The notes under the pieces are model-generated. The model had not been told where the DNA came from and did no database searches. It was given only the letters and a program-made list of their open reading frames with translations. Below are positions 8,440-25,327 of a stretch of 26,660 nt of DNA, in pieces (positions within the stretch are counted from its first letter, which is position 1; the number at the start of each line of letters is the position of its first letter). The translations under genes were made by a program, and so were the position numbers. The DNA is from a virus (taxonomy: Duplodnaviria > Caudoviricetes). The stretch spans positions 1-26,660 of the IMG/VR virus record IMGVR_UViG_3300032281_000213. One strand, 5' to 3'.

Positions 8440-9371
8440 TATACTCCAAATCCAAACGCTCTTGCAAGCCCTGTTGCTGCATCGCGTGCGTTCTCATTTG
8501 CTTCTTGTGTGAGGTCGTACTTAGGGTCGTTCTTAGCCTTCATCAATAAATCATAGTATGATGGCTGTTTCCCTTTTCCATCTGGACCAGCATAGTTAAG
8601 ATATGACATTACAAATGGGTTATCCATCTTGACTGTCTTTGGGTCCATCTGCCATGTCTTTGCTAGCATGTTAATGACAGGAGAAGCAATATCGTATGTA
8701 GTTAAAGTTGGGTCTTTGTCAAAACGGTCTGCAAACTGTGGGTATTCTTTCTTAGCAATCTGCTGTAGTTCTACGTTGTAATCCTCTACAGTCTTGTTAC
8801 CCATTGCAATTTCTTTTGCTGCAATACGCATATCATTCTCAGTAACACCAAGAAGTTGGAATGCATCTACCAATCCACGAACCTTAGCAAAAGCATCAAG
8901 TGCTTTAGCACCTAACTTGGTTTGGTCCTTGAAGTCAATCTTTGAATAAACGAAGTTCTTTGCAAAGTCTGTAGGCTTAAAGAATGATGGGAACTCTTGA
9001 CGAGCAACAGATTCAACAATCTTCTTTTGTGCTTCTGCTGTTGCCCCAGGCTTAATTTGAGTACGTGCAGATGTAACAATCTTTTCGATTTGCTTGTTCT
9101 GCTCTGTCTCAAAAGCCTTCATGAAGTCTTTAATATCATCTGCACTTAACTTGCCCACAAAGTCAGCCTCTTTCATGGCTGCTTCAAGAAGCGCCTTGGC
9201 TGAGTTGTAAGTTAGTTTAGTAACAGATGTTTGAGTTGAAGACTGTGATGTATCTGATGGCTTGCCAGCATCATTGTTTTCTGCTAAAAGGCTAGCAAGA
9301 AATGGTGCAATACTGTTGAGGATAGCAGCATCTTGCGCATCCTGGTTAGGTGTTGCTGACTTTTCTGCCAT
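8439..9371 (-). CDS. Probable internal virion protein
   Basis: 310 aa, helical, TAATG-coupled at both ends, ending GLARAFGFGV. Confidence 0.5.
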   Translation of the reverse strand: MAEKSATPNQDAQDAAILNSIAPFLASLLAENNDAGKPSDTSQSSTQTSVTKLTYNSAKALLEAAMKEADFVGKLSADDIKDFMKAFETEQNKQIEKIVTSARTQIKPGATAEAQKKIVESVARQEFPSFFKPTDFAKNFVYSKIDFKDQTKLGAKALDAFAKVRGLVDAFQLLGVTENDMRIAAKEIAMGNKTVEDYNVELQQIAKKEYPQFADRFDKDPTLTTYDIASPVINMLAKTWQMDPKTVKMDNPFVMSYLNYAGPDGKGKQPSYYDLLMKAKNDPKYDLTQEANENARDAATGLARAFGFGV

Positions 9372-12300
9372 TAGTTAACCGCCTTCAAACTGTCGTTATC
9401 GAAGTAATTCTTAATTAGAGTCTCTAAGTTAGGGTCCCATTGCTTTACATACTGAGCAACCCATTGGTTGTAACCATCACGGATTACTGCCTTACGAGGG
9501 TCGTAATCTGGCAATGATTGATAGAATGTAACGAAGACATTTCGTGCCTTCATAAACAATTGAGTATCTTTCCAGAACTGATTATTCTGTTGCTTACCCA
9601 TAAACTTAGGGTCTTGAGTAATAAGAGTTAATGCTCGAGCATACTTGTAAGATGTATCTCCGCTAGCAGATAGTTGGTACTCGTCATACCATGCTTGGCT
9701 TTGATTCTTAAATGTAGACTCCACTAACTGCTCCAATGGAGCCTTTAGTTCTGGGTGAGCACGTAGTGTCTTACCATCAGTAATCTTAGCCTCTAGTGCA
9801 TCACGAACCAAGTTGTACTGGTCCCATGTACGCTGCTTCATGCGCTCGCGCTCAACTTCTTGTGGTGTTAACTTAAAGTCGTTAATATTTTTGCTGGTAC
9901 CAGGAAGTTTAAGGTTAGGATTACTTAAGATAGAAAGAATGTTATTTGACTGCTCTTCTGGGTTTCTACTAAGGTCAGCAGTCAATAGACTTACTAATCC
10001 AACATCACCCTTTTCAATTGCAGCAAGTTTGCCAACTAGGTCATCGTTATCTTTAAACACACGCTGATATGCTTCGTATGTTGCTGGAATACTAATATTC
10101 TTTGAAGAGCCAGTAAAAGTAATGCGGTCAAGCATAAACTTAGGACCCATAATAGCAAGCATCTCATCACCTGCAGCATCACGTGCCTGCTGTGTTCCGT
10201 AACCTAACTTATCATATTTATCAAGCAACTTGTAATACAAGTTAGTTGACATACGCATAGGATTAGTTTCTACCTTGAAAGGTACACCAGGCCCAACAAA
10301 ACCTGAAATAAATTTCTCAGTCCATAGAGCCTTTACTTGTCTTTCAATCTCTGTATCTGATGGGAACTTATCTGTAACTCCCATTTCTACCAACATTTTG
10401 TGGTAGTTATATACTGAACGCCATGATGCTAGGTAATCTGCTTTACCTGGGTTACCAGTTGCAGCGTTCCATAGCGAGTTAGCCCAAGGTGGAGTCAACT
10501 GCTTAGTTAAAGATGTAGGTGCTCCATATGGAAAGATAATATCAAAGTAGTTAGTTCCATTGATTGTTAATGCTTCCTTAATACCTTCTTCGGTACCAGG
10601 AAACTTCTGCATTACCTTACCAACAGATAGTGCTGTAATAAACGATGGAGATGGCTGGTTAAGTAAGAATCCAAGAGACTTTGAATTTAATGCAATACCC
10701 TCATCCATGTATCCAAGACCCATTTCTTTGGTTCCTGGAAGGATTAAGTGAGTCATATCTACTAGATTCTCGGTAGGGTTACCGTTCTCATCAACGCCAA
10801 AACTCTGGAATACTCGTCCATAGTTATATGCAAACTGTGTAGCACGAACTGGGTTCTTTGCTGCAAGTCGACCATAGCGGTAGAAAGCATTAACTGTTGC
10901 TGTTGGGAATGCTACGGCAAAGCGTGCATTATGCAGCAAACGGTTCTCACGTCGTACTGTATAAACAGTCTTCTCGAGTTCCTGAATTGCTTCACGACCA
11001 GAAGATTGACGAAGTGCGTTCCATTGTGCAGGTGTCATTTCAATACCTTGGGAAATTAAATACTCTGCTTTACGAGCCATTACATCTAGTGCAACGTTAT
11101 CAAAAAATGCGTTACGGATAGGGTTTTCAGCACTAGCCATCTTACGGAAAATTGCTGCACTAAAGTTATTAACAGCATTACTTAAATCAGCATATTTACC
11201 CACACCTAAGTTGGCTGAGCCATAGTTATAGTTACTTGGCACAATATCATAGAGTTCATCTACATAAGGAGCAAGCCATCCTTGTAGTTCTTGTCCTGTT
11301 ACTTCTCGTTGAAGTATTGCTGCACGCGCCTCATATGATGGGAATGTACGGTTAACTAGTGCAATCTTATCTGCAAGATATGAGTTAACCTCTTTAGGGT
11401 CAAATATATCAAATGCACGTAGGTATTGAATACCATCACTGCTAGATGCCCAGCGTTGCAGTTCACCAATTGGTGTATTGCCTAAAATTAAATCGATAAG
11501 TGGGTCTCCGCGCATTACGCGGTTAGCAATATATTCTAACTCACCAAAATATAGTGGGTCTGATACACGTACCACATCTAATGGGACTTTGCGTTCTATA
11601 AGAGATTTGCGCGTTCCAACAGATAGTTCACCTAAGAAGTTAATATCAGTTGTACGTGCGTTGCTTACTTCTGCGCGTATTGCTGCGCTAAAGTTTTTAT
11701 CTCCAGTTACGAATGAATCAATCGCCATGTACTGACCATTAACCATACGGTACTGTGATTCTCTAGAGTAATAACGCTTCTTAAACTTAGCATTCTTACC
11801 AAATACATCTGCTTGTTGCTTAAGCGCTGTACCTAATTCATTAAGAATATTGTCGATATTCTGGTATGCTGCAGCAACTGCGTTGTCAGCATCAAGGATG
11901 GCTTGCTTATTGCTTGCTAACTTATTAATAACGTTTCTGTAGTTAGCAAGTGCAGCCTTGGCTGATGCAATCTCTGCTTTCTTGCTTGAAGCAGTCGGTT
12001 TAGACTCTAGAAATGCAATGCGACGTTCTAGTGTTGTAACACCTGGGATTGCTTCTTTAACCCCTAGTGGCACTACAGCAGAGCGTAGGTCTAGTTCAAT
12101 CTCGTCTAGAATAGATTTGGCTGACTTGAGCGCTTCACGCGCTGCGTCTAAATGCTGCGCCTTAGTTGCAGGAGATGTATTGCCAGACAGCAAGTCTTCT
12201 AATGAAGCCTGTGCATTATCCTTAATGGCTGCTGCGCGAGCATACATTTGCTTCTTATCGAGAACTGCTTTGTTAACAGCAATGCGTTCTTTACGATTTG

Positions 12301-14401
12301 CAACGTTTGATATCTTCCCTCTACCCCAGTTGCCAAAGTTACGTGCAGCATTGCTGCCAATGCTTGCCATATCTTGCCATAAAAATTCCATACCTTGTGC
12401 AATAGTTGCACTAACAATAGGCTCACCAAGTGACTGCTTAACAATGTACATAGGGCGTACAAGTACGTCAAATGTCCATAGACGGTTAAGGTCACGGAAT
12501 ACTTGCTGACCAATGTTTGCTGTAGCGCGAGCGCCAGCCTTTAAAGCACTCTTTTCAGTTGTTGCAATGAATTGACTTTCGATTGCATCCCAAGGTGTAA
12601 AGCGATATGATTCAGTCATCTGACGAATAGTCTGTGGGTCTACCAGAATCTGGCTTCCATCATGACCAATACCAAAACCATTTTGCTTTACTGATTCAAT
12701 ACCACGGTTTACGTTACCACGGAATGAACGGATGTGTGCTGAAATCTCACGTTCATCGTAGATACCAGCCTTGTATGCAAGCATACGACCGATTGATTCA
12801 TCAATACTATCAAGTACTTCTACTTCATTCTTTCCAAGAGAATTCATATAGCGTGATTCAAACTCACGACGAACATCTCCTACTTTTGCAAATACTCCAG
12901 GAGCAATTTCAATATCCTTCGGTGCGTACTTTAGTCCTCCGTCTTTACCGAAAATTTTAGAGTCATTATTAAATAATTTAATATTATTTAAGAATGCATT
13001 AAGTTCTACGCGACCATCAAGTGGGCGTACACCAGAGAATGTAACAAAGCCTAGTGGCTTATATTCTGATTGGCGTGTGCCAAACTTTACTAGACGTACT
13101 GTTGCACGTCCAAAGCCCTTACCAATTTTAGTCTCAAAGATATCAGCAAACTTATCAAACTCGCGGTATGCTGCAACAGACTTAAACTGACGAATCTTTT
13201 CGCCTGCGCGAATTGCTGCAGACTTGCCAATAATTGGCTCCATTGGATTGTATAATTTACCACCAGAGGTTAGGTTATAGCCAGGGTCAAAGAATGCGTC
13301 ACGAATCTTTACAAATTGTGGCTCATTAGCAATAGCAGAATCAAATGCAGACTTTAAGCGTGAAACTGCTACTCCTGTTGGAACATACGTCTGACCTGTT
13401 TGCAAGAAATTATTCTGTAACTGAGATGATGTGCTTGACAAATCAAACAATTTATCTGGTGCAGTATTTGCAAGACGCTCAAGTGCAGCAGGGTTGCCTT
13501 TATCTGCAAGAAGTAAATCTTTAACTACATCAGCATCAGTTGTTTCATGAATAAGCGGAATAAGTTTTTCATTAGTGCTGTACTTAGATACAAGGTTGGT
13601 AATAGTTCCCCAGTCCTTGCTTTCTGCAAGTACAACTGCGTGGTTGCCCGATACTGTCTGAGAACCCATAACACCATTAGTCTTAGCGTACTGAATACCA
13701 TTGTTCATATCCGCTGCTAATTGGTCTACAGTCTTGTTCTTAGTATAAAGACCAGCCTTGCCAAATCCTATTTTACCACCAGCAACTGCAACTCGTCCAA
13801 CGCCACCTAGTACTGCGTTACCAACTGCAAAGTCAGTAAGACCAGTAAACCAGCGACCTACTGCATTATCTACAAAGTTTTGCTTTAGGCTTTGGTCATT
13901 CCATAAATCAATTTTATTAACATCTAGTCCGCCCATAGGAAGAACCATTGCTGCAATACCGCTAATAGGTGTCATATCTGACATTGTAAGTGCTTGACCT
14001 ACAGATACCTTAGCGCTGCGATTGTATGCAGCCTTTACATCGTCAAACTGAAAGCCTTCTTCGTATTGACCCTTCTTGTAAAGGGGAGACTGAAAGTCTG
14101 TAAGAAGTGCAGCAGTTGATACTGGACGAAAGATGTATGGTGATAGTACTTCTTGGTTAAGAGTAACAGCGCCCTGGAGTAATTTATCTCCAACACCCTT
14201 AACTACTTTCTTACCAATACCAAATCCAGGAACATTACTTGCCGCTGAATCGATACCACGCAGTGCGTCTTTTACAGTATTATGAAGAGTTTCTTCTTTT
14301 GCACGTTCTTCATCACTGAGGTAGTTTCCACCACCTGTAAGTCTCTTAAGAGCCGTAGGTACTGCAGCAATAGAGGTTGTGAAATCATTCCACCAAGCCA
14401 T
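9371..14401 (-). CDS. Large virion protein, probable DNA-ejection/internal core protein
   Basis: 1676 aa with RBS AGGAGGT. Helical with a central coiled coil and no tape-measure-type repeats seen. Size and context resemble podoviral ejection proteins. Confidence 0.55.
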   Translation of the reverse strand: MAWWNDFTTSIAAVPTALKRLTGGGNYLSDEERAKEETLHNTVKDALRGIDSAASNVPGFGIGKKVVKGVGDKLLQGAVTLNQEVLSPYIFRPVSTAALLTDFQSPLYKKGQYEEGFQFDDVKAAYNRSAKVSVGQALTMSDMTPISGIAAMVLPMGGLDVNKIDLWNDQSLKQNFVDNAVGRWFTGLTDFAVGNAVLGGVGRVAVAGGKIGFGKAGLYTKNKTVDQLAADMNNGIQYAKTNGVMGSQTVSGNHAVVLAESKDWGTITNLVSKYSTNEKLIPLIHETTDADVVKDLLLADKGNPAALERLANTAPDKLFDLSSTSSQLQNNFLQTGQTYVPTGVAVSRLKSAFDSAIANEPQFVKIRDAFFDPGYNLTSGGKLYNPMEPIIGKSAAIRAGEKIRQFKSVAAYREFDKFADIFETKIGKGFGRATVRLVKFGTRQSEYKPLGFVTFSGVRPLDGRVELNAFLNNIKLFNNDSKIFGKDGGLKYAPKDIEIAPGVFAKVGDVRREFESRYMNSLGKNEVEVLDSIDESIGRMLAYKAGIYDEREISAHIRSFRGNVNRGIESVKQNGFGIGHDGSQILVDPQTIRQMTESYRFTPWDAIESQFIATTEKSALKAGARATANIGQQVFRDLNRLWTFDVLVRPMYIVKQSLGEPIVSATIAQGMEFLWQDMASIGSNAARNFGNWGRGKISNVANRKERIAVNKAVLDKKQMYARAAAIKDNAQASLEDLLSGNTSPATKAQHLDAAREALKSAKSILDEIELDLRSAVVPLGVKEAIPGVTTLERRIAFLESKPTASSKKAEIASAKAALANYRNVINKLASNKQAILDADNAVAAAYQNIDNILNELGTALKQQADVFGKNAKFKKRYYSRESQYRMVNGQYMAIDSFVTGDKNFSAAIRAEVSNARTTDINFLGELSVGTRKSLIERKVPLDVVRVSDPLYFGELEYIANRVMRGDPLIDLILGNTPIGELQRWASSSDGIQYLRAFDIFDPKEVNSYLADKIALVNRTFPSYEARAAILQREVTGQELQGWLAPYVDELYDIVPSNYNYGSANLGVGKYADLSNAVNNFSAAIFRKMASAENPIRNAFFDNVALDVMARKAEYLISQGIEMTPAQWNALRQSSGREAIQELEKTVYTVRRENRLLHNARFAVAFPTATVNAFYRYGRLAAKNPVRATQFAYNYGRVFQSFGVDENGNPTENLVDMTHLILPGTKEMGLGYMDEGIALNSKSLGFLLNQPSPSFITALSVGKVMQKFPGTEEGIKEALTINGTNYFDIIFPYGAPTSLTKQLTPPWANSLWNAATGNPGKADYLASWRSVYNYHKMLVEMGVTDKFPSDTEIERQVKALWTEKFISGFVGPGVPFKVETNPMRMSTNLYYKLLDKYDKLGYGTQQARDAAGDEMLAIMGPKFMLDRITFTGSSKNISIPATYEAYQRVFKDNDDLVGKLAAIEKGDVGLVSLLTADLSRNPEEQSNNILSILSNPNLKLPGTSKNINDFKLTPQEVERERMKQRTWDQYNLVRDALEAKITDGKTLRAHPELKAPLEQLVESTFKNQSQAWYDEYQLSASGDTSYKYARALTLITQDPKFMGKQQNNQFWKDTQLFMKARNVFVTFYQSLPDYDPRKAVIRDGYNQWVAQYVKQWDPNLETLIKNYFDNDSLKAVN

Positions 14402-19301: not shown

Positions 19302-19526
19302 TATATATCCCGTCCAATAACGCCGATTTAACGCCTCTTAGAAACGGCATAAGGGGGGCATTCTGATAAAAAATTCAAAAATTATATTATATATAGGAGG
19401 AGCGGAGTCTTAAACGGAGCGACTCCGTATATATTATATATATACTATAGAAGACCCGTTCAAACGGGTCAATTCCGAGTGGGTTGGGAAAGTATTTTCC
19501 CGAACCCCTGTATACTAAGCGTACGA

Positions 19527-19542
19527 TGTGACGTACGTCACA
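19527..19542. promoter_or_regulatory. Perfect palindrome matching the CRP-family consensus TGTGA-N6-TCACA
   Basis: TGTGACGTACGTCACA in the divergent intergenic region. Confidence 0.5.
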
Positions 19543-19937
19543 CTGTCCGAGGAGTACTTTAGGTACTCTGAGGGGGGTATTAAATATAACAGAAAATTAT
19601 TATGGGAGTATATATATACAAACAAAAGCGTTTTTAATAAACCTCGGCTCAAAGATGCGCATTTATGCGCCTGTTATGCGCTTATTGTTATGCGTGAATG
19701 AATTGTGAATGAGTAACTATCTGCAAGGCTCATCTATAAATAGATTCCCCCGTTAATAAATAAATAAATTGCAGCGCAGATAAATGCGATAGATAGTTGA
19801 AACTTCAACTACTTTCCCCTGTCATAAAGCTTCTTTTCCCTGCCGTTCGGCTAACCGAACAGGCTCACGCTCACGCCTACGCTCACGACACGCCTAGACC
19901 TGCCCTGCCCTGCATGGTGTTGCAAAACCTTTTTTGA

Positions 19938-19946
19938 TGGTAGGAT
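19938..19946 (+). promoter_or_regulatory. Candidate extended -10 promoter for the first early gene
   Basis: TGGTAGGAT, with TTGCAA at 19920-19925 (15-bp spacer, suboptimal). The context TTTTGATGNTAGRAT is shared with the promoter at 21038-21066. Confidence 0.45.
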
Positions 19947-20009
19947 TCGTGTAACGAATTAGGCAAATCCGCCTCATTCGGCTAACCGAATAGAAATGGA
20001 AAAACCCAA

Positions 20010-20615
20010 ATGACAAAAGCAACTACAACAAAGGCTCCAAAGAACACGATTACAATCAAGGCTCCAAAACTCACTTCGGCATGGGTTTCGGTCTGCTCAA
20101 CTTCTGCAAAGTCAGAAAGTGAAATAATCAAGGCTATTGAAAACCTAAGTGCAACTATGGTTCTCGAAAGTCGCTTATCGGTGAACGACCAAAAGAAGTT
20201 CATCAAAGGCTTAGAGGATTCGGGCAAAGTGTCCTCGTTCGTTAAGTCATCTCACGCGCCCGCTTTGCCTACATGGAGCAAATTGCGTGCGCTTCATGCA
20301 GATTTCCGCGCCCTGCCAATCGCTAAGCAACTATCAACCGCCAGCGCTTCTTACGACCTACTAGGCGCGGGAAATGGTGAGCAGATTAAGTCACTAGATG
20401 CGCTCCAAAAAGAAATTGCAACAGTCCGCAAGAACAAGAACGAGAAGTCTGCAAAGGCTCCAAAGGCTGAGAAGTCTGCAAAGGCTCCAAAGGATACCCT
20501 CGCGGAAATCCTCGCTTACTTCACCGCGCTGAACTTCTCAGAATTAAGCGAGAATCAGCAGGACCAAATCGCGGAAATCCATGCAGTTCTAGAGGGTAAG
20601 ATGATTAACGCATAA
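20010..20615 (+). CDS. First early gene, hypothetical protein
   Basis: 201 aa with four KAPK motifs, followed by a strong terminator. Confidence 0.8.
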   Translation: MTKATTTKAPKNTITIKAPKLTSAWVSVCSTSAKSESEIIKAIENLSATMVLESRLSVNDQKKFIKGLEDSGKVSSFVKSSHAPALPTWSKLRALHADFRALPIAKQLSTASASYDLLGAGNGEQIKSLDALQKEIATVRKNKNEKSAKAPKAEKSAKAPKDTLAEILAYFTALNFSELSENQQDQIAEIHAVLEGKMINA

Positions 20616-20627
20616 GCAGAAAGAAAG

Positions 20628-20658
20628 TAGCCCCCGCGAAAGCGGGGGTTATTTTTTT
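20628..20658 (+). terminator. Rho-independent terminator
   Basis: TAGCCCCCGC-GAAA-GCGGGGGTTA followed by T7, 12 nt after the stop at 20615. Confidence 0.9.
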
Positions 20659-20906
20659 GTCCAAAAATTTTGGTCGTCCCGACACAAACCAACACAAACC
20701 GAATGGGGCAAGGCACGCCAACGACTTAATCCAACACAAACCTTCCGAGCGACTGATGACCGCCACCGACCTGCCCCCGTTCGGCTAACCGAATGGTGAT
20801 AGACAAGAACTTCTATCCATGCTAGACTAGTGTCTATCAGCAAGAGTTATACTTACTGAGAACCGACAATCGTTGTTCGGTTAACCGAATAGAAAGTGAG
20901 AACGAA

Positions 20907-21041
20907 ATGCTAAACCTAGATGAGTTAATCACTCACTTAGAAGTACAGACCAACATCTTAAATGAGAAGCGTGCAGAGCAAGAACGCCATGAACGCGGTG
21001 TGCGTGCTATACGCGAAGCAAGCAACATTGAGCAGGCTTGA
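20907..21041 (+). CDS. Small hypothetical protein (44 aa)
   Basis: Read manually: MLNLDELITHLEVQTNILNEKRAEQERHERGVRAIREASNIEQA*, preceded by a dyad copy and AGAAAGTGAG. Confidence 0.65.
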   Translation: MLNLDELITHLEVQTNILNEKRAEQERHERGVRAIREASNIEQA

Positions 21042-21066
21042 CCCATACTTCTTTTGATGTTAGAAT
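21038..21066 (+). promoter_or_regulatory. Housekeeping sigma (sigma70/SigA-type) promoter
   Basis: TTGACC, 17-bp spacer, then TAGAAT with an extended TGn. Confidence 0.8.
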
Positions 21067-21074
21067 AAAGCCTT

Positions 21075-21185
21075 AAGCGGATAGCCTACCCTGAATTTGG
21101 GCAGGTGTAGGCTGGTGGCTCACGATAGGTAGTTACGCTGGTGCGAGTCCAGCGGTGAGCGCGTGATAACAAATTGTTATCGCTT
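21075..21185 (+). ncRNA. Putative structured RNA/leader with tRNA-like domain
   Basis: Begins just after the promoter. It has a hairpin at 21083-21113, coaxial stems GCTCAC/GTGAGC and CGCTGG/CCAGCG with a 7-nt loop, and a possible closing stem. Confidence 0.5.
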
Positions 21186-21220
21186 GTTCGGTTAGCCGAA
21201 CAGTATCGAAAGGTTATCAA

Positions 21221-21370
21221 ATGGAACTGTTTAACTTAGAAGTAAGTAAGTGGGGCATCAGCCTAGAGACTTACTTTGGTGACATTTACTTGTATCACCG
21301 AGCATGGCTTACTGCACTTGGCATTGTCGTAGTGCTTCGCCTTGCTAAGCGTATTCGTGGAGCGTGGTAA
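21221..21370 (+). CDS. Small hypothetical protein with hydrophobic segment (49 aa)
   Basis: Read manually: MELFNLEVSKWGISLETYFGDIYLYHRAWLTALGIVVVLRLAKRIRGAW*, with RBS GAAAGG. Confidence 0.7.
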   Translation: MELFNLEVSKWGISLETYFGDIYLYHRAWLTALGIVVVLRLAKRIRGAW

Positions 21371-21372
21371 TT

Positions 21373-21558
21373 ATGTACCCAACCGCAGATGAACTCGTAG
21401 CCAACGCGATTTCCGACACAAACTTATGGGAATCCCGACTAGATTATCAACTTGTCCAGGAAATTCTTGGGCATGACCTGTCGCAGAGCGAGTGGTCAGA
21501 ACTTGTGGGTCAATTAGATGATGCCGTCTATGAGACTGTTATGAGTTACCAGAGATGA
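21373..21558 (+). CDS. Small acidic hypothetical protein
   Basis: ATG at 21373 (MYPTADEL...), 2 nt after the previous stop, with GGAG upstream. 61 aa. Confidence 0.65.
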   Translation: MYPTADELVANAISDTNLWESRLDYQLVQEILGHDLSQSEWSELVGQLDDAVYETVMSYQR

Positions 21559-21722
21559 TTACTATTGAACTCTCCGAGCGTGAGTGGAGCGCCATTATGG
21601 GTGCTTTGCGCATACAAGAAGAAGGTCACAAGCGTAACGACTTCAAGGCATTGGTGTCTGAAATGCAGGACATTCGCTCACGCATGAATGATGCCATGAT
21701 TGACAGTAAAATAAATGCATGA
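21555..21722 (+). CDS. Small hypothetical protein (55 aa)
   Basis: ATGA overlap. Reads MITIELSEREWSAIMGALRIQEEGHKRNDFKALVSEMQDIRSRMNDAMIDSKINA*. Confidence 0.65.
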   Translation: MITIELSEREWSAIMGALRIQEEGHKRNDFKALVSEMQDIRSRMNDAMIDSKINA

Positions 21723-21728
21723 TAGAAT
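21700..21728 (+). promoter_or_regulatory. Housekeeping sigma (sigma70/SigA-type) promoter
   Basis: TTGACA, 17-bp spacer, then TAGAAT with an extended TGn, upstream of the amidoligase gene. Confidence 0.85.
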
Positions 21729-21790
21729 AAGACTATTGCAAAGCGCAATGGTTCAGGTTGTTCGGTTAAACGAACGAGAAAGGTAATCAA

Positions 21791-23029
21791 ATGACAGATG
21801 AAATCAAAGAAGTCTCTGTATCCTGTGCGGTATGTTTAATCGACATGACAGAAGATGATGCGATTACAACTGAGTATGATGAAACTGTATGCGGTGAATG
21901 TGTACAGACATGTTACAGATGCGACATGATAGGTTCTACCAATGACGACTTTCATGTGGTTGATGGTGACATGTGGTGTAACTCATGTACTGAGAATCGT
22001 GCATACTGGTGTGAGTCATGTGAGGAATACAATTCACAAGGCACTTCCTATGTATCAGACCGACAAGAGCATTGGTGCGAGATGTGCCTCAATGAAGCCT
22101 ATTGGTGCGACTCATGTGATGAGTGGAACTCGGACGGTTGCGATAGTTGCTCAGATGAGGACGGTGGTCGTATCATTCACGATTACAGTTACAGACCTGA
22201 TGCTATCTTCCATAGTGTAGATAAGAATGAACGCTTGTTCTTCGGGCTAGAGATAGAGGTAGAAGCAGGTCGTAACCTGCGTGAAGCCTCTGCTTATGCA
22301 CACCAACTAGAAGCGTTAGACCTAGCCTATCTTAAGCATGACGGCTCACTTAATAGTGGCTTCGAGATAGTCACACACCCTATGTCTCATGAGTTCTTCA
22401 AGAATGAAGCACAAGAGTTATGGGATACACTAGAACAGTTGCGTAGTAACAGTGCATACCGAGTCAAGTCATGGGATACCAAGACATGTGGCTTGCACAT
22501 TCACATCTCACGCACGGGTTTTAGTGGTGGCGCACACATGCACCGCTTCCTCAACCTTGTGTATTCTAATCCTGATTTCTATTCAACGCTTGCTGGTCGT
22601 ACCTCTGACCAATGGGCTAAGTTCACAGACATCTATCGCAATGATTACAAGCGCGATAGTAATGGTGAGCGTATCTGGGACATGGACAATGGATACGAGG
22701 TTATCACTACGCGACAATTCAAGCACAAGTTAAGTACAGATTACAATAGTGACCGCTATTCAGCAGTCAATACCAATAACAGAGAGACACTAGAGATGCG
22801 TATCTTCCGAGGTAGTGTCAATGGTAACACCATCAAAGCCCAGATAGACTTAGCGCATGCCAGCGTTGAGTACACCCGAACCCTTACTGTCCAAGATGTG
22901 CGCGAAGGTGCGCTATCTGCCGATAACTTCATGTGGTATGTATTCCAGAATGAAGCGTTGTACCCAGAACTTTCAGCCCGTATAGATAAACTAGTCGTTC
23001 GGTTAGCCGAACAGAATGTGAGCAACTAA
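21791..23029 (+). CDS. Putative COOH-NH2 ligase (amidoligase) with N-terminal multi-CxxC Zn-ribbon region
   Basis: FGLEIEVE, KHDGSL..GFEIVTHP, TCGLHIHIS, DRYSAVN and TLEMRIFRG motifs of the glutamine-synthetase-fold amidoligases. Eight CxxC pairs lie in the first ~120 aa. Confidence 0.85.
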   Translation: MTDEIKEVSVSCAVCLIDMTEDDAITTEYDETVCGECVQTCYRCDMIGSTNDDFHVVDGDMWCNSCTENRAYWCESCEEYNSQGTSYVSDRQEHWCEMCLNEAYWCDSCDEWNSDGCDSCSDEDGGRIIHDYSYRPDAIFHSVDKNERLFFGLEIEVEAGRNLREASAYAHQLEALDLAYLKHDGSLNSGFEIVTHPMSHEFFKNEAQELWDTLEQLRSNSAYRVKSWDTKTCGLHIHISRTGFSGGAHMHRFLNLVYSNPDFYSTLAGRTSDQWAKFTDIYRNDYKRDSNGERIWDMDNGYEVITTRQFKHKLSTDYNSDRYSAVNTNNRETLEMRIFRGSVNGNTIKAQIDLAHASVEYTRTLTVQDVREGALSADNFMWYVFQNEALYPELSARIDKLVVRLAEQNVSN

Positions 23030-23872
23030 ATGTGTCTACTCGTTGTAGCCTCGCCTAATTCCACGCCTCGTAAGAAGGACTTGGAATGTGCATCATGTAA
23101 TAATCCGCATGGCTTCGGCTTTGCAGTCATCACGCCTAATGGCATTGTCACAGGTCGTGGCATGTCAAGCAAGAAAGTAATCAAGCAGTTCTTAGAAGTA
23201 CGCAAGGAGTTTCCAGATAGTTATGCTATGTTCCATGCTCGCTATGCTACGCATGGTGTCAAGAATGAGGAGAACTGTCACCCATTCAAGGTTAAGAATA
23301 GTTACGATACTTACCTAGCACACAATGGTATTCTTGACATCAACATCTCAGCAGGTGACCGCAGAAGTGACACGCGTATCTTTGCAGAGGATACATTACC
23401 TGCTATGGGTGGTGTTACCGCCCTTGATGATGACCATGTGTGGGCTATGGTTAGCAAGTGGTCATTAGGTAGCAAGATTGTAGTGTTCACCCTAGACCCT
23501 AACGCTAAGGAGACATGCTACATCATCAACGAAAGTTCAGGCTTCTGGGACGATGAAGGCATGTGGTGGTCTAACTCTACATACAAGCAATCTACATGGG
23601 GTAGTTATCTAGGATTGCCCAGTCAAGCGTCGACTACGGCGCTCAATGATAGCGGTTACGAAGAAAGCGGATACATTACTGAGTGCGCTCATTGCTTGGG
23701 TATCCCAGAGATAGATTCCAATCCGTATTACTGTGAGATGTGTTTCACATGCTACGATTGCGACGGCATGTATCAGGACACATGCCTATGCTGGACACCA
23801 GAGAAGGACAAGTATGCCTACAATGTAAAGGGGAGAGTAAGTGGATACTACAATGACTCATTCGGATTCTAG
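23030..23872 (+). CDS. Class II glutamine amidotransferase (Ntn) with Cys-rich C-terminus
   Basis: M-C start, NPHGFG, FHARYATHG, NCHPF, LAHNGI and SDT motifs. Confidence 0.88.
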   Translation: MCLLVVASPNSTPRKKDLECASCNNPHGFGFAVITPNGIVTGRGMSSKKVIKQFLEVRKEFPDSYAMFHARYATHGVKNEENCHPFKVKNSYDTYLAHNGILDINISAGDRRSDTRIFAEDTLPAMGGVTALDDDHVWAMVSKWSLGSKIVVFTLDPNAKETCYIINESSGFWDDEGMWWSNSTYKQSTWGSYLGLPSQASTTALNDSGYEESGYITECAHCLGIPEIDSNPYYCEMCFTCYDCDGMYQDTCLCWTPEKDKYAYNVKGRVSGYYNDSFGF

Positions 23873-24065
23873 CGTTCGGTTAGCCGAACAGACAGACCCG
23901 TTCAAGGGAATGTGGGTGGCTGGGTGGATTACCTCGACACAAACTGTCGACGGACTCGTCCACTACGGACCATTCAACACGCAAGAAGAAGCACTTAAGT
24001 GGGGTAAAGAACTAACTAATGTAGAGGTGTACCGAGTATTCGTACCCTCATGGAACGCAGGATAG
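23853..24065 (+). CDS. Hypothetical protein (start uncertain: 23853 or 23910)
   Basis: Open frame with a YGPFNTQEEALKW motif. In-frame ATGs at 23853 (MTHSD) and 23910 (MWVAG). Confidence 0.6.
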   Translation: MTHSDSSVRLAEQTDPFKGMWVAGWITSTQTVDGLVHYGPFNTQEEALKWGKELTNVEVYRVFVPSWNAG

Positions 24066-24502: not shown

Positions 24503-24941
24503 CACACTACATGGTAACTGCACAGGGGATGCCAACCCTGATGCATGGTTCCCTGAACTAACGCGGGGCAACCCGTCCGATACTAAAATGCTGGCATTAG
24601 CCACAGAGGTACGGCGTGCTATCGGTGAGTGCTACACATGCCCTAATCAGGCTGGATGCCTTGAAGAAGGGATGCAACCTAAAAACTTGTCATATGGTAT
24701 TTGGGGTGGTAGACTTGCAGGTGAAAGAATGCTCATGGCGGATGAACAGGGCATTGATTATATGGTTGAGGGTCGAGCAACAGGTACAGTGCATATGCGA
24801 AGCAATTCGGAACGCACTGGCAAGGGCAGGCATAAGGGTATGGTAGTAATCAAGGAAGATGAGAGAGTAACTGCCGAAGCAAAAAAGAAAGCACTTATAT
24901 TCCTAAGAAGGATACGACCTTGGATTGAGGTACCAGAATGA
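24495..24941 (+). CDS. whiB: WhiB-family transcriptional regulator
   Basis: C...DAWFPE...CYTCP.....C four-Cys pattern plus YGIWGG....ER, followed by a C-terminal extension. Confidence 0.85.
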   Translation: MISTLHGNCTGDANPDAWFPELTRGNPSDTKMLALATEVRRAIGECYTCPNQAGCLEEGMQPKNLSYGIWGGRLAGERMLMADEQGIDYMVEGRATGTVHMRSNSERTGKGRHKGMVVIKEDERVTAEAKKKALIFLRRIRPWIEVPE

Positions 24942-25327
24942 CCAAGAAACTTGCAGTACTGTTTATCTTTGGGCTTATCGTTTATCTTATTGGGAACAGG
25001 AATGAGCCTTCGGTAGAGGAGATACCCCAAAGGGAATGGGCAGTAGAAGATAGCAAGGCTTATGCTCAGGATGTAGTTCTAGCGTGGGCTGGTAATCAGT
25101 ACGAGTGCTTAGATAAACTCTGGACGCAGGAATCCAACTGGCGGTCAGAGGCATACAACAAGATAAAAGTAATGGGTAAGAACGCTGGCGGTATACCGCA
25201 GATACTAGGGCTAGACCCTAAGACTCCTGCACCATTACAGATTGACAGAGGCTTCGCCTATATCATGCACAGATACGGCACGCCTTGCATGGCATGGAAG
25301 TTCCACGAACGGAAAGGCTGGTACTAA
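24938..25327 (+). CDS. Lysozyme-fold lytic transglycosylase-like protein with N-terminal membrane anchor
   Basis: Hydrophobic N-terminus. The pattern CLDKLWTQESNW...AGGIPQ...QIDRGFAYIMHRYGTPCMAW...GWY is typical of actinobacterial SLT-like domains. Confidence 0.8.
   Translation: MTKKLAVLFIFGLIVYLIGNRNEPSVEEIPQREWAVEDSKAYAQDVVLAWAGNQYECLDKLWTQESNWRSEAYNKIKVMGKNAGGIPQILGLDPKTPAPLQIDRGFAYIMHRYGTPCMAWKFHERKGWY

Follow-up and report, generated by a model that had tools for sequence, protein, structure and literature searches.

An array of early-region palindromes and a candidate partner protein, gp1, in a family of uncultured phages

Described repeat systems and the palindromes of the window

In the temperate Cluster A mycobacteriophages, which have an integrase or parABS, the repressor (gp71 in L5) is bound as a monomer at stoperators, asymmetric 13-mers which are oriented with transcription and occur more than 20 times per genome, and it blocks both initiation and elongation and gives immunity (PMC6550527; PMC9283540). 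Here we analyse an array of eight palindromes in the early region of a 26,660-base virus record (IMG/VR IMGVR_UViG_3300032281_000213, referred to as the window; the genome is of roughly 40 kb), together with the 201-amino-acid (aa) first early protein, gp1, which varies between relatives in step with the palindromes. The closest functional likeness appears to be the Cluster A repressor/stoperator system, where many sites also lie at promoters (here predicted) and in short intergenic spaces, the motif diverges with the phage protein and there are specificity groups, but site symmetry and protein homology differ. The sites described here are palindromes of 15-17 bp, with up to about 11 in about 5-7 kb, gp1 is unrelated to L5 gp71 (hhalign probability 0.1%, E 0.58), and no tyrosine integrase was found in five complete genomes.

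A 17-bp repeat of Cluster O mycobacteriophages, TGTTCGGNNNCCGAACA, shares the GTTCGG/CCGAAC arms of the window's site type. It is a dyad to which the source assigns no function, although dimer binding is proposed and a slight core strand preference is reported, and it has a 3-bp spacer and more than 30 copies genome-wide (PMC4351075). The sites of the window differ in their 4-bp spacer and copy number, Corndog having 35 N3 and no N4 sites and the window no N3 site, and Corndog lacks a gp1 homolog. The common arms may be the result of convergence, given the 22 site types found here.

KorB, which binds OB sites of RK2, and the ParB and Noc proteins (PMC11790492; PMC7383237) recognise palindromes near to and far from promoters through a helical binding domain, and specificity has been reprogrammed within this family. 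Unlike these proteins, gp1 has no CTPase domain; it gave no sequence match in Pfam, PHROGs or PDB, and no ParA partner was seen among 35 open reading frames (ORFs) of one complete genome. In T4-type phages, PeSLs are promoter plus terminator stem-loops which recombine with each other (PMC2839356), and they too recur at junctions between early genes within a variable region. The repeat described here is only 15-17 bp long, tracks a protein and, unlike PeSLs, gave no sign of shuffling from site to site (0 of 1246 comparisons). The phi29 p4 protein is a regulator of a lytic podovirus which binds upstream of early promoters and represses through contact with the RNA polymerase alpha-CTD; similarly, a site occurs here at a fixed helical phase upstream of a predicted early promoter. 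No homology to p4 was detected, however, and p4 is not known to have an array at gene junctions or within genes, or to have diversified into many site types. No description of the gp1/palindrome system was found in the literature searched, which was mostly without subscription papers and actinophage supplements.

A first-pass annotation of the window had drawn attention to an eight-copy dyad restricted to about 4 kb, and this was borne out. With up to two mismatches allowed, GTTCGG-N4-CCGAAC has eight matches in the 26,660 bases, all within 19845-23889 (sites 1 to 8 at 19845-19860, 19976-19991, 20779-20794, 20875-20890, 21186-21201, 21760-21775, 22997-23012 and 23874-23889). The mean expected by chance is 0.39, and the largest count in shuffled sequence was three, with eight reached in none of 100 shuffles. 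The arms are exact in four of the eight sites and carry one or two mismatches in the remaining four, the right arm of copy 6 reading ACGAAC. The cores are as first listed: CTAA in sites 1-3, TTAA in sites 4 and 6, and TTAG in sites 5, 7 and 8. Six sites precede an ATG (20010, 20907, 21221, 21791, 23030 and 23910) at measured distances of 18, 16, 19, 15, 17 and 20 nt, within the 15-20 nt originally noted.

Copy 7 does lie within the coding end of an amidoligase gene, where it is read as VRLAEQ. The recurrence of this peptide at 23874, also pointed out by the annotation, is present but only reflects the same bases in frame before 23910, the likely start, and therefore adds no information. Clustering was also seen in the relatives: in four of the five complete ones searched, all matches to TCGG-N4-CCGA (7-9 in each) are confined to 4.7-5.6 kb, the site type of the fifth being a different one. 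A spacer of four is dominant in the relatives.

The noted change in core orientation along the array is rejected as a designed feature, since the pattern of the window is not kept at orthologous sites. At the copy-5 position, TTAG in the window, 12 same-type relatives have CTAA (10), CTAG (1) or TTAG (1). The consensus is a symmetric site with two degenerate central positions forming a Y/R pair. A type-specific core strand bias can be seen (CTAA 37 and TTAG 15 in type A, TTAG 27 and CTAA 0 in type E, CCAG 22 and CTGG 2 in type B), in counts which are inflated by shared descent.

Palindrome types and gp1 across relatives

Relatives were sampled through their amidoligases, initially 22 loci and then the best 80 of 398, which with the window gives 81. 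Dyads were scanned for de novo in each locus, and the commonest dyad was taken as its type, five labels being set by hand. Each of the 81 loci has its own multi-copy palindrome at equivalent early-region positions. Twenty types are represented, all 15-17 bp long, with an even length in eight and an odd length in 12, for example GGTCGG-CYAG-CCGACC, GTCGGG-YTAR-CCCGAC, TGCCGTAT-A-ATACGGCA and TGTATGAA-A-TTCATACA; two further types in a second, terminase-selected set bring the number to at least 22. When all 20 consensus patterns were scanned over all loci, 584 sites were found, 575 of the locus's own type and nine foreign, with 581 of the 584 in the early interval, which makes up half of the bases. 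The conserved unit is the dyad alone, without a promoter or terminator. Among the foreign sites are a degenerate O-type site inside the amidoligase gene (about +1090 from its start) common to L198, L199, L204 and L205, which are S-/N-type phages, and a perfect A site at +2577 from the amidoligase start in L169, an E-type phage; recent gene exchange is the likely origin of both.

A gp1 homolog was recovered in 63 of the 81 loci, the other 18 ending before or within the gene as judged from match positions, and in each of the 60 loci that could be tested the site type is that of the locus with the nearest gp1. In a dereplicated set of 56 loci, the nearest neighbour by gp1 is of the same type in 52/52 cases, compared with 35/52 for the amidoligase, 26/45 for the amidotransferase and 26/41 for the terminase. 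Same-type nearest neighbours were found in 25/42 cases for WhiB, 21/37 for a sigma-like protein and 19/23 for the adjacent 44-aa ORF; on each of these three subsets gp1 is at or within one of perfect. The WhiB protein had been put forward as a candidate binder and, together with the sigma-like and small early proteins, is rejected, as all of them track the type worse than gp1. A gp1 tree of 53 rows needs 14 type changes, the minimum possible (37 in shuffles), while a quick amidoligase tree needs 22. The deepest split in gp1 divides even- from odd-length sites.

Linkage alone does not explain this tracking, because sites at least 1 kb past the amidoligase start, about 2 kb or more beyond gp1, are of their own type in 128 of 131 cases, and because loci with 89-95% identical amidoligases but only 18-41% identical gp1 differ in type. 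In L122 the terminase is 99-100%, the amidoligase 90-95% and gp1 32-33% identical to those of type A phages, and the array is a mosaic of six type B sites and one type A site retained before the amidoligase gene. At L122:6461-6545, the flank upstream of a type B site is that of type A, and a 51-bp insertion with a short direct repeat at its bounds comes after the site. In 69 cross-type site pairs both 60-nt flanks still match and the site differs, and the amino acids of the amidoligase tail vary together with site type.

Co-occurrence was examined in an independent set of 80 terminase-selected loci. The analysis took in the 45 that have 1.4 kb or more upstream, leaving out six contigs under 2 kb and 13 that duplicate earlier contigs, and adding the phages E7 and F5. 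The latter are cultured lytic 'Ca. Planktophila' phages (PMC10202952). The window's terminase is 84.4% identical to that of two records described as LanE43-AprE7 and LanE43-AprF5, which suggests an actinobacterial host for the window phage. At least four dyad copies are present in all 17 gp1-positive loci and in none of the 11 gp1-negative loci, E7 and F5 among them. Three of the negative loci are identical, leaving nine distinct, and the Fisher p of 5e-8 is overstated, as there may be relatedness among the negatives. The type was as predicted in six new loci whose gp1 is close (score over 700). Four terminase relatives (76-80%), L249, L250, L255 and L306, have neither gp1 nor an array and so form natural negative controls; they carry a Cys-rich ORF of 404-441 aa whose start resembles that of the amidoligase.

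Taken with the co-variation (52/52), the co-occurrence supports the first early protein, which the annotation had named as a candidate, as the likely binder, and gp1 very probably pairs with the sites. In the AlphaFold2 model gp1 is all-helical (pLDDT 83.6; residues 15-146 alone pLDDT 92.5, pTM 0.86), with a predicted N-domain (15-146; 20 basic and 13 acidic residues), a basic linker and an acidic two-helix C-part (one basic and seven acidic residues). A helix at 58-70, a long loop and a helix at 80-95 with a conserved S-H motif vary between types and little within them. There are 492 gp1 homologs at 90% clustering, and none among GenBank phages or plasmids, nor in Corndog or Immanuel3. Fold comparison (Foldseek against PDB and BFVD, VIA-align) gave no clear match, the best Z being 5.6, which does not show a new fold; phi29 p4 is not among the listed fold matches. 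A ParB-type domain is not among the 25 of 32 Pfam families shown for 54 gp1 members. Leads to DUF3102 (0.89) and RegA-type proteins (0.90, on 117 of 256 features) from an Atlas search were not confirmed, and a Plasmid_parti_N lead was under 0.9. The symmetry of the sites points to a gp1 dimer, and the best reading is that gp1 would be a new all-helical dimeric repressor of early transcription, with a specificity that diversifies in the manner of immunity groups.

Placement of the sites and possible roles of gp1

Site 1 is situated just within the inferred genome end, about 100 bp before the predicted start of gp1 transcription. The predicted promoter P1 (19938-19946, plus strand) is an extended -10 element, TGn-TAGGAT, with a weak -35, and site 2 is in the leader of gp1 (20010-20615, plus strand). 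A GC hairpin followed by a T run at 20631-20659, read from the sequence on the plus strand, is a likely terminator which would make gp1 a single-gene unit, although the terminator scan listed this hairpin on the minus strand only. Sites 3 and 4 flank the predicted promoter P2 (20800-20828, plus strand; TAGACA-17-TAGACT), site 3 ending 5 bp before its -35 with a centre at -48.5 and site 4 being centred at +47.5, in front of the 44-aa ORF at 20907. The predicted P3 (21038-21066, plus strand; TTGACC-17-TAGAAT) is followed by site 5 before a 49-aa ORF (21221), and the predicted P4 (21700-21728, plus strand; TTGACA-17-TAGAAT) by site 6, which has one inner mismatch and precedes the Amidoligase_2 gene (21791-23029, plus strand). 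The C-terminal tail of the amidoligase is encoded across site 7, which also leads into a class II glutamine amidotransferase-like gene (23030-23872, plus strand), and site 8 comes directly after the stop of the latter.

Each of P1, P2 and P4 is followed by a site at 30-48 bp in the window, and 60 loci have a predicted promoter enclosed by a pair of sites that are 89-123 bp apart. The promoter scan gave 10 promoter-like sites against 14.0 in shuffles, so that P1-P4 rest on position and conservation instead; P1 predictions are weak in the relatives. Sixty loci retain the site upstream of P2, and its centres fall at -47.5/-48.5, -56 to -59, -65 to -67.5 and -75 to -78.5 in the 56 rows kept, with an R of 0.66 at 10.5 bp and 0.78 at 9.5 bp over 16 type clusters; these values depend on predicted promoters and leave out four of 60 rows, two of which are off-phase at -62/-63, and eight of the 16 clusters belong to one gp1 clade. 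In the same rows neither the downstream site nor the site-to-site spacing is phased, and looping between the P2 site pair was rejected (R 0.11-0.34). The phasing points to a possible contact with RNA polymerase and would be compatible with either sign of regulation.

The co-variation, the co-occurrence and the placement at predicted promoters support the operator or roadblock role which was among the options first raised for the sites. That they are operators at which a gp1 dimer represses early transcription has, in our judgement, a somewhat better than even chance of being correct. Under this model gp1 would be made first, from its own promoter beside the likely first-entering genome end, and as it accumulated would occupy the sites flanking P1 and P2 and block initiation. 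At the downstream leader, junction and intragenic sites it would act as a roadblock, so that the early cluster, including gp1's own promoter, would be shut off. The same pool of gp1 could silence the early genes of a later-arriving phage of the same type and spare one of a different type. Specificity would then have diversified into many orthogonal protein/site pairs because same-type superinfecting genomes are silenced, and selection would keep all sites matched while gene bodies recombine freely. From these patterns we infer direct binding, dimerisation, repression and superinfection exclusion.

Several observations weigh against this model. Immunity-style diversification is known from temperate phages, and no tyrosine integrase (PF00589) was found in the five complete genomes (controls positive 14/14; serine integrases were not searched genome-wide). 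Only two gp1 hits were obtained in 185,579 genomes, and neither has a prophage context, both being on 84-90% phage-like contigs in metagenome-assembled genomes (MAGs). The own type of a locus is its majority type by construction, being its commonest dyad, though its near-completeness is not, and nine foreign sites are tolerated. In eleven new loci whose gp1 is distant (score under 660), the type is not that of the nearest training neighbour; two gp1 clades which are about 26% identical share type G, and L246 has an R-type site while its nearest gp1 is O-type. gp1 is without a match in Pfam, PHROGs or PDB sequences, and the KorB DNA-binding domain (1r71) ranks only 26th among fold matches (Z 4.5, rmsd 5.0, 96/114 aligned), within noise. 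The helically spaced upstream P2 site fits activation as well as repression, and the position of 249 of 450 sites within 60 nt of a Shine-Dalgarno-led ATG, mostly at 13-24 nt, also fits an RNA role.

A wider proposal is more tentative, and on balance we consider it doubtful. This would be a widespread non-integrating actinobacterial phage family with a self/non-self code, in which a new family of DNA-binding proteins, the first to be made, silences the early genes of incoming phages with the same palindrome and more than 20 orthogonal pairs exist. It would amount to immunity groups without lysogeny, or to the mark of an as yet unrecognised SOS-responsive carrier state in streamlined freshwater bacteria. 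Neither integrase, ParA, RNA polymerase nor a classical repressor was found among the 35 scanned ORFs of one complete genome.

gp1 could instead bind the sites mainly to activate or license delayed-early transcription, by contacting RNA polymerase upstream of P2, and possibly repress at higher levels. Activation that switches to repression at higher levels is known for phi29 p4 and lambda cI, and the phasing of the upstream P2 site (R 0.66-0.78 at periods of 9.5-10.5) with an unphased downstream site would fit this, as would a separately terminated first gene. However, P2-P4 are near-consensus promoters, most sites lie downstream of promoters or inside genes, and the phasing carries the limits of promoter prediction, clade sampling and dropped rows given above. 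We consider this alternative unlikely, though worth weighing.

It is quite improbable that gp1 binds the sites for DNA handling instead of transcription, as a factor resembling ParB or KorB that would pull in, protect, anchor or partition the first DNA to enter and would serve a non-integrated carrier state. The confinement of the sites beside the inferred genome end (581/584 in the early interval) would suit such a role, as would SOS-box-like sites upstream of gp1 in 11 of 63 loci and the weak full-length likeness to the KorB DNA-binding domain, which is at most a lead, alongside the DUF3102 and Plasmid_parti_N leads under 0.9. The 201-aa all-helical model, which has no Pfam match, nevertheless holds no CTPase domain, and no longer, fused form of gp1 was seen among 7997 scored candidates, which is weak evidence. 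ParA is missing from the 35 ORFs scanned in one complete genome, and neither the promoter placement nor the P2 phasing is needed for DNA handling. The cultured relatives also lyse their host without gp1 or sites (PMC10202952).

That the sites work as hairpins in leader RNA, where gp1 would bind or cut them and so control how each early message is translated or processed, is very unlikely. Predicted hairpin energies of -4.4 to -10.8 kcal/mol by type, the core strand bias and the proximity to start codons could be explained in this way, and the Atlas feature search put T4 RegA-type repressors first, though on only 117 of 256 features. The symmetry, however, extends to positions which cannot pair. 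In 240 of 264 odd-length (mostly 17-bp) sites, drawn from the 450 unique ones, the bases on either side of the centre are complementary, T-A in some types and A-T in others, and a one-base hairpin loop cannot close; these positions were part of the scan patterns, whose consensus itself came from the de novo scan. Arm mismatches show no excess of G-U (63) over A-C (74; p 0.39, untranscribed sites included), 19 of the 450 sites lie more than 90 nt inside long genes, and sites upstream of promoters are conserved. In addition, RegA is not among the listed fold matches of the all-helical gp1 model, and Rfam gave no match. Because of the symmetry at an unpairable centre, the lack of G-U bias and the sites inside genes and upstream of promoters, we read the dyad as recognised on DNA, as the annotation had favoured over an RNA loop, with junction placement reflecting leaders and free space. 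The sole terminator-like score among the eight sites is at site 7, on the minus strand. Three RNA runs held 5-6% of words, as contigs only.

Recombination between sites, bounding exchangeable cassettes or rewriting the sites from a master copy, is barely plausible. Type switches are often limited to the site, with conserved flanks (the 69 pairs above), site 8 is the exact point at which some relatives and the window diverge, and the core strand bias could reflect conversion among copies. Where both flanks could be matched, however, they came from the same site in 1246/1246 comparisons, none joining the flanks of different sites, and the cassette exchange envisaged by the annotation is rejected. 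Small-gene insertions after the 44-aa ORF break at 21010-21034, away from the sites, and no tyrosine recombinase was found in the five complete genomes. Finally, a regulator from the host, or else WhiB or the sigma-like protein of the phage, can virtually be discounted as the binder, since although the two phage proteins are encoded nearby, they do not co-vary with type, E7 and F5 encode both (PMC10202952) yet lack the array, and a single host factor would not yield 22 site types.

If gp1 does act as the partner of these sites, a specific protein and site can be named for an unannotated control system in an abundant group of uncultured phages. With at least 22 matched protein/site pairs, the system would be a natural resource for work on changes in DNA specificity, and might also supply orthogonal repressors. 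Should exclusion be the driver, competition between phages would shape specificity groups even where no integrase is found. The same approach might lead to the binders of further orphan dyads, the Cluster O repeat among them.

Genome ends, LexA-type boxes and neighbouring features

The terminase, portal and capsid genes run leftward from 19301 in the window, and a rightward cluster from 20010 includes the Amidoligase_2, amidotransferase-like, WhiB and transglycosylase genes; the sigma-like gene is in the opposite orientation to this cluster. Contigs end 415-426 nt upstream of the terminase in eight of the 80 terminase-selected contigs, and two early-side contigs start at window-equivalent 19440-19445. 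Because related contigs end and begin there, a short direct terminal repeat probably lies just left of site 1, and the early cluster would therefore be the DNA likely to enter first. The stretch from 19302 to 19844, where the ends of many related contigs fall, is non-coding and partly AT-rich.

In 11 of 63 loci the 700 nt before gp1 include perfect CGAAC-N4-GTTCG boxes, 15 of 17 boxes falling in about 5% of the bases. They fit the Streptomyces/actinobacterial LexA consensus tCGAAC-N4-GNNCGa, the arms of which are in the opposite order to those of the window's eight sites (PMC9380542). The loci are L167, L168, L170-L172, L180, L184, L187, L189, L202 and L214, with boxes also in L243, L245 and L246, and there are up to three boxes per locus, clustered between the terminase start and gp1. 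The window has no match to the LexA-type box with up to one mismatch. SOS sensing, a LexA decoy or a carrier state are possible explanations of the boxes. Two gp1-carrying contigs of this phage family, L307 and L308, were binned into MAGs labelled Burkholderiaceae and Saccharimonadales, a placement which is likely to be mis-binning.

Further elements lie near the array. A 15-bp dyad over the predicted P1 start (19945-19959) resembles the site type of L243 less one base, and may be a degenerate site or due to chance. A separate dyad, GATAACAAATTGTTATC, just upstream of site 5 (21160-21190) is similar across site types A, B, C, D and E, and could be an element for a different binder or an RNA element. 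Many relatives have a ninth site before the transglycosylase gene, which the window (24917-25030) and its closest relatives L141 and L120 are without. In the structural cluster, a 1676-aa protein encoded on the minus strand (9371-14401) matches only an unknown PHROG and is possibly an ejection protein. Short tandem units, such as CTCACG, follow site 1 at 19863-19890 and are found again in relatives.

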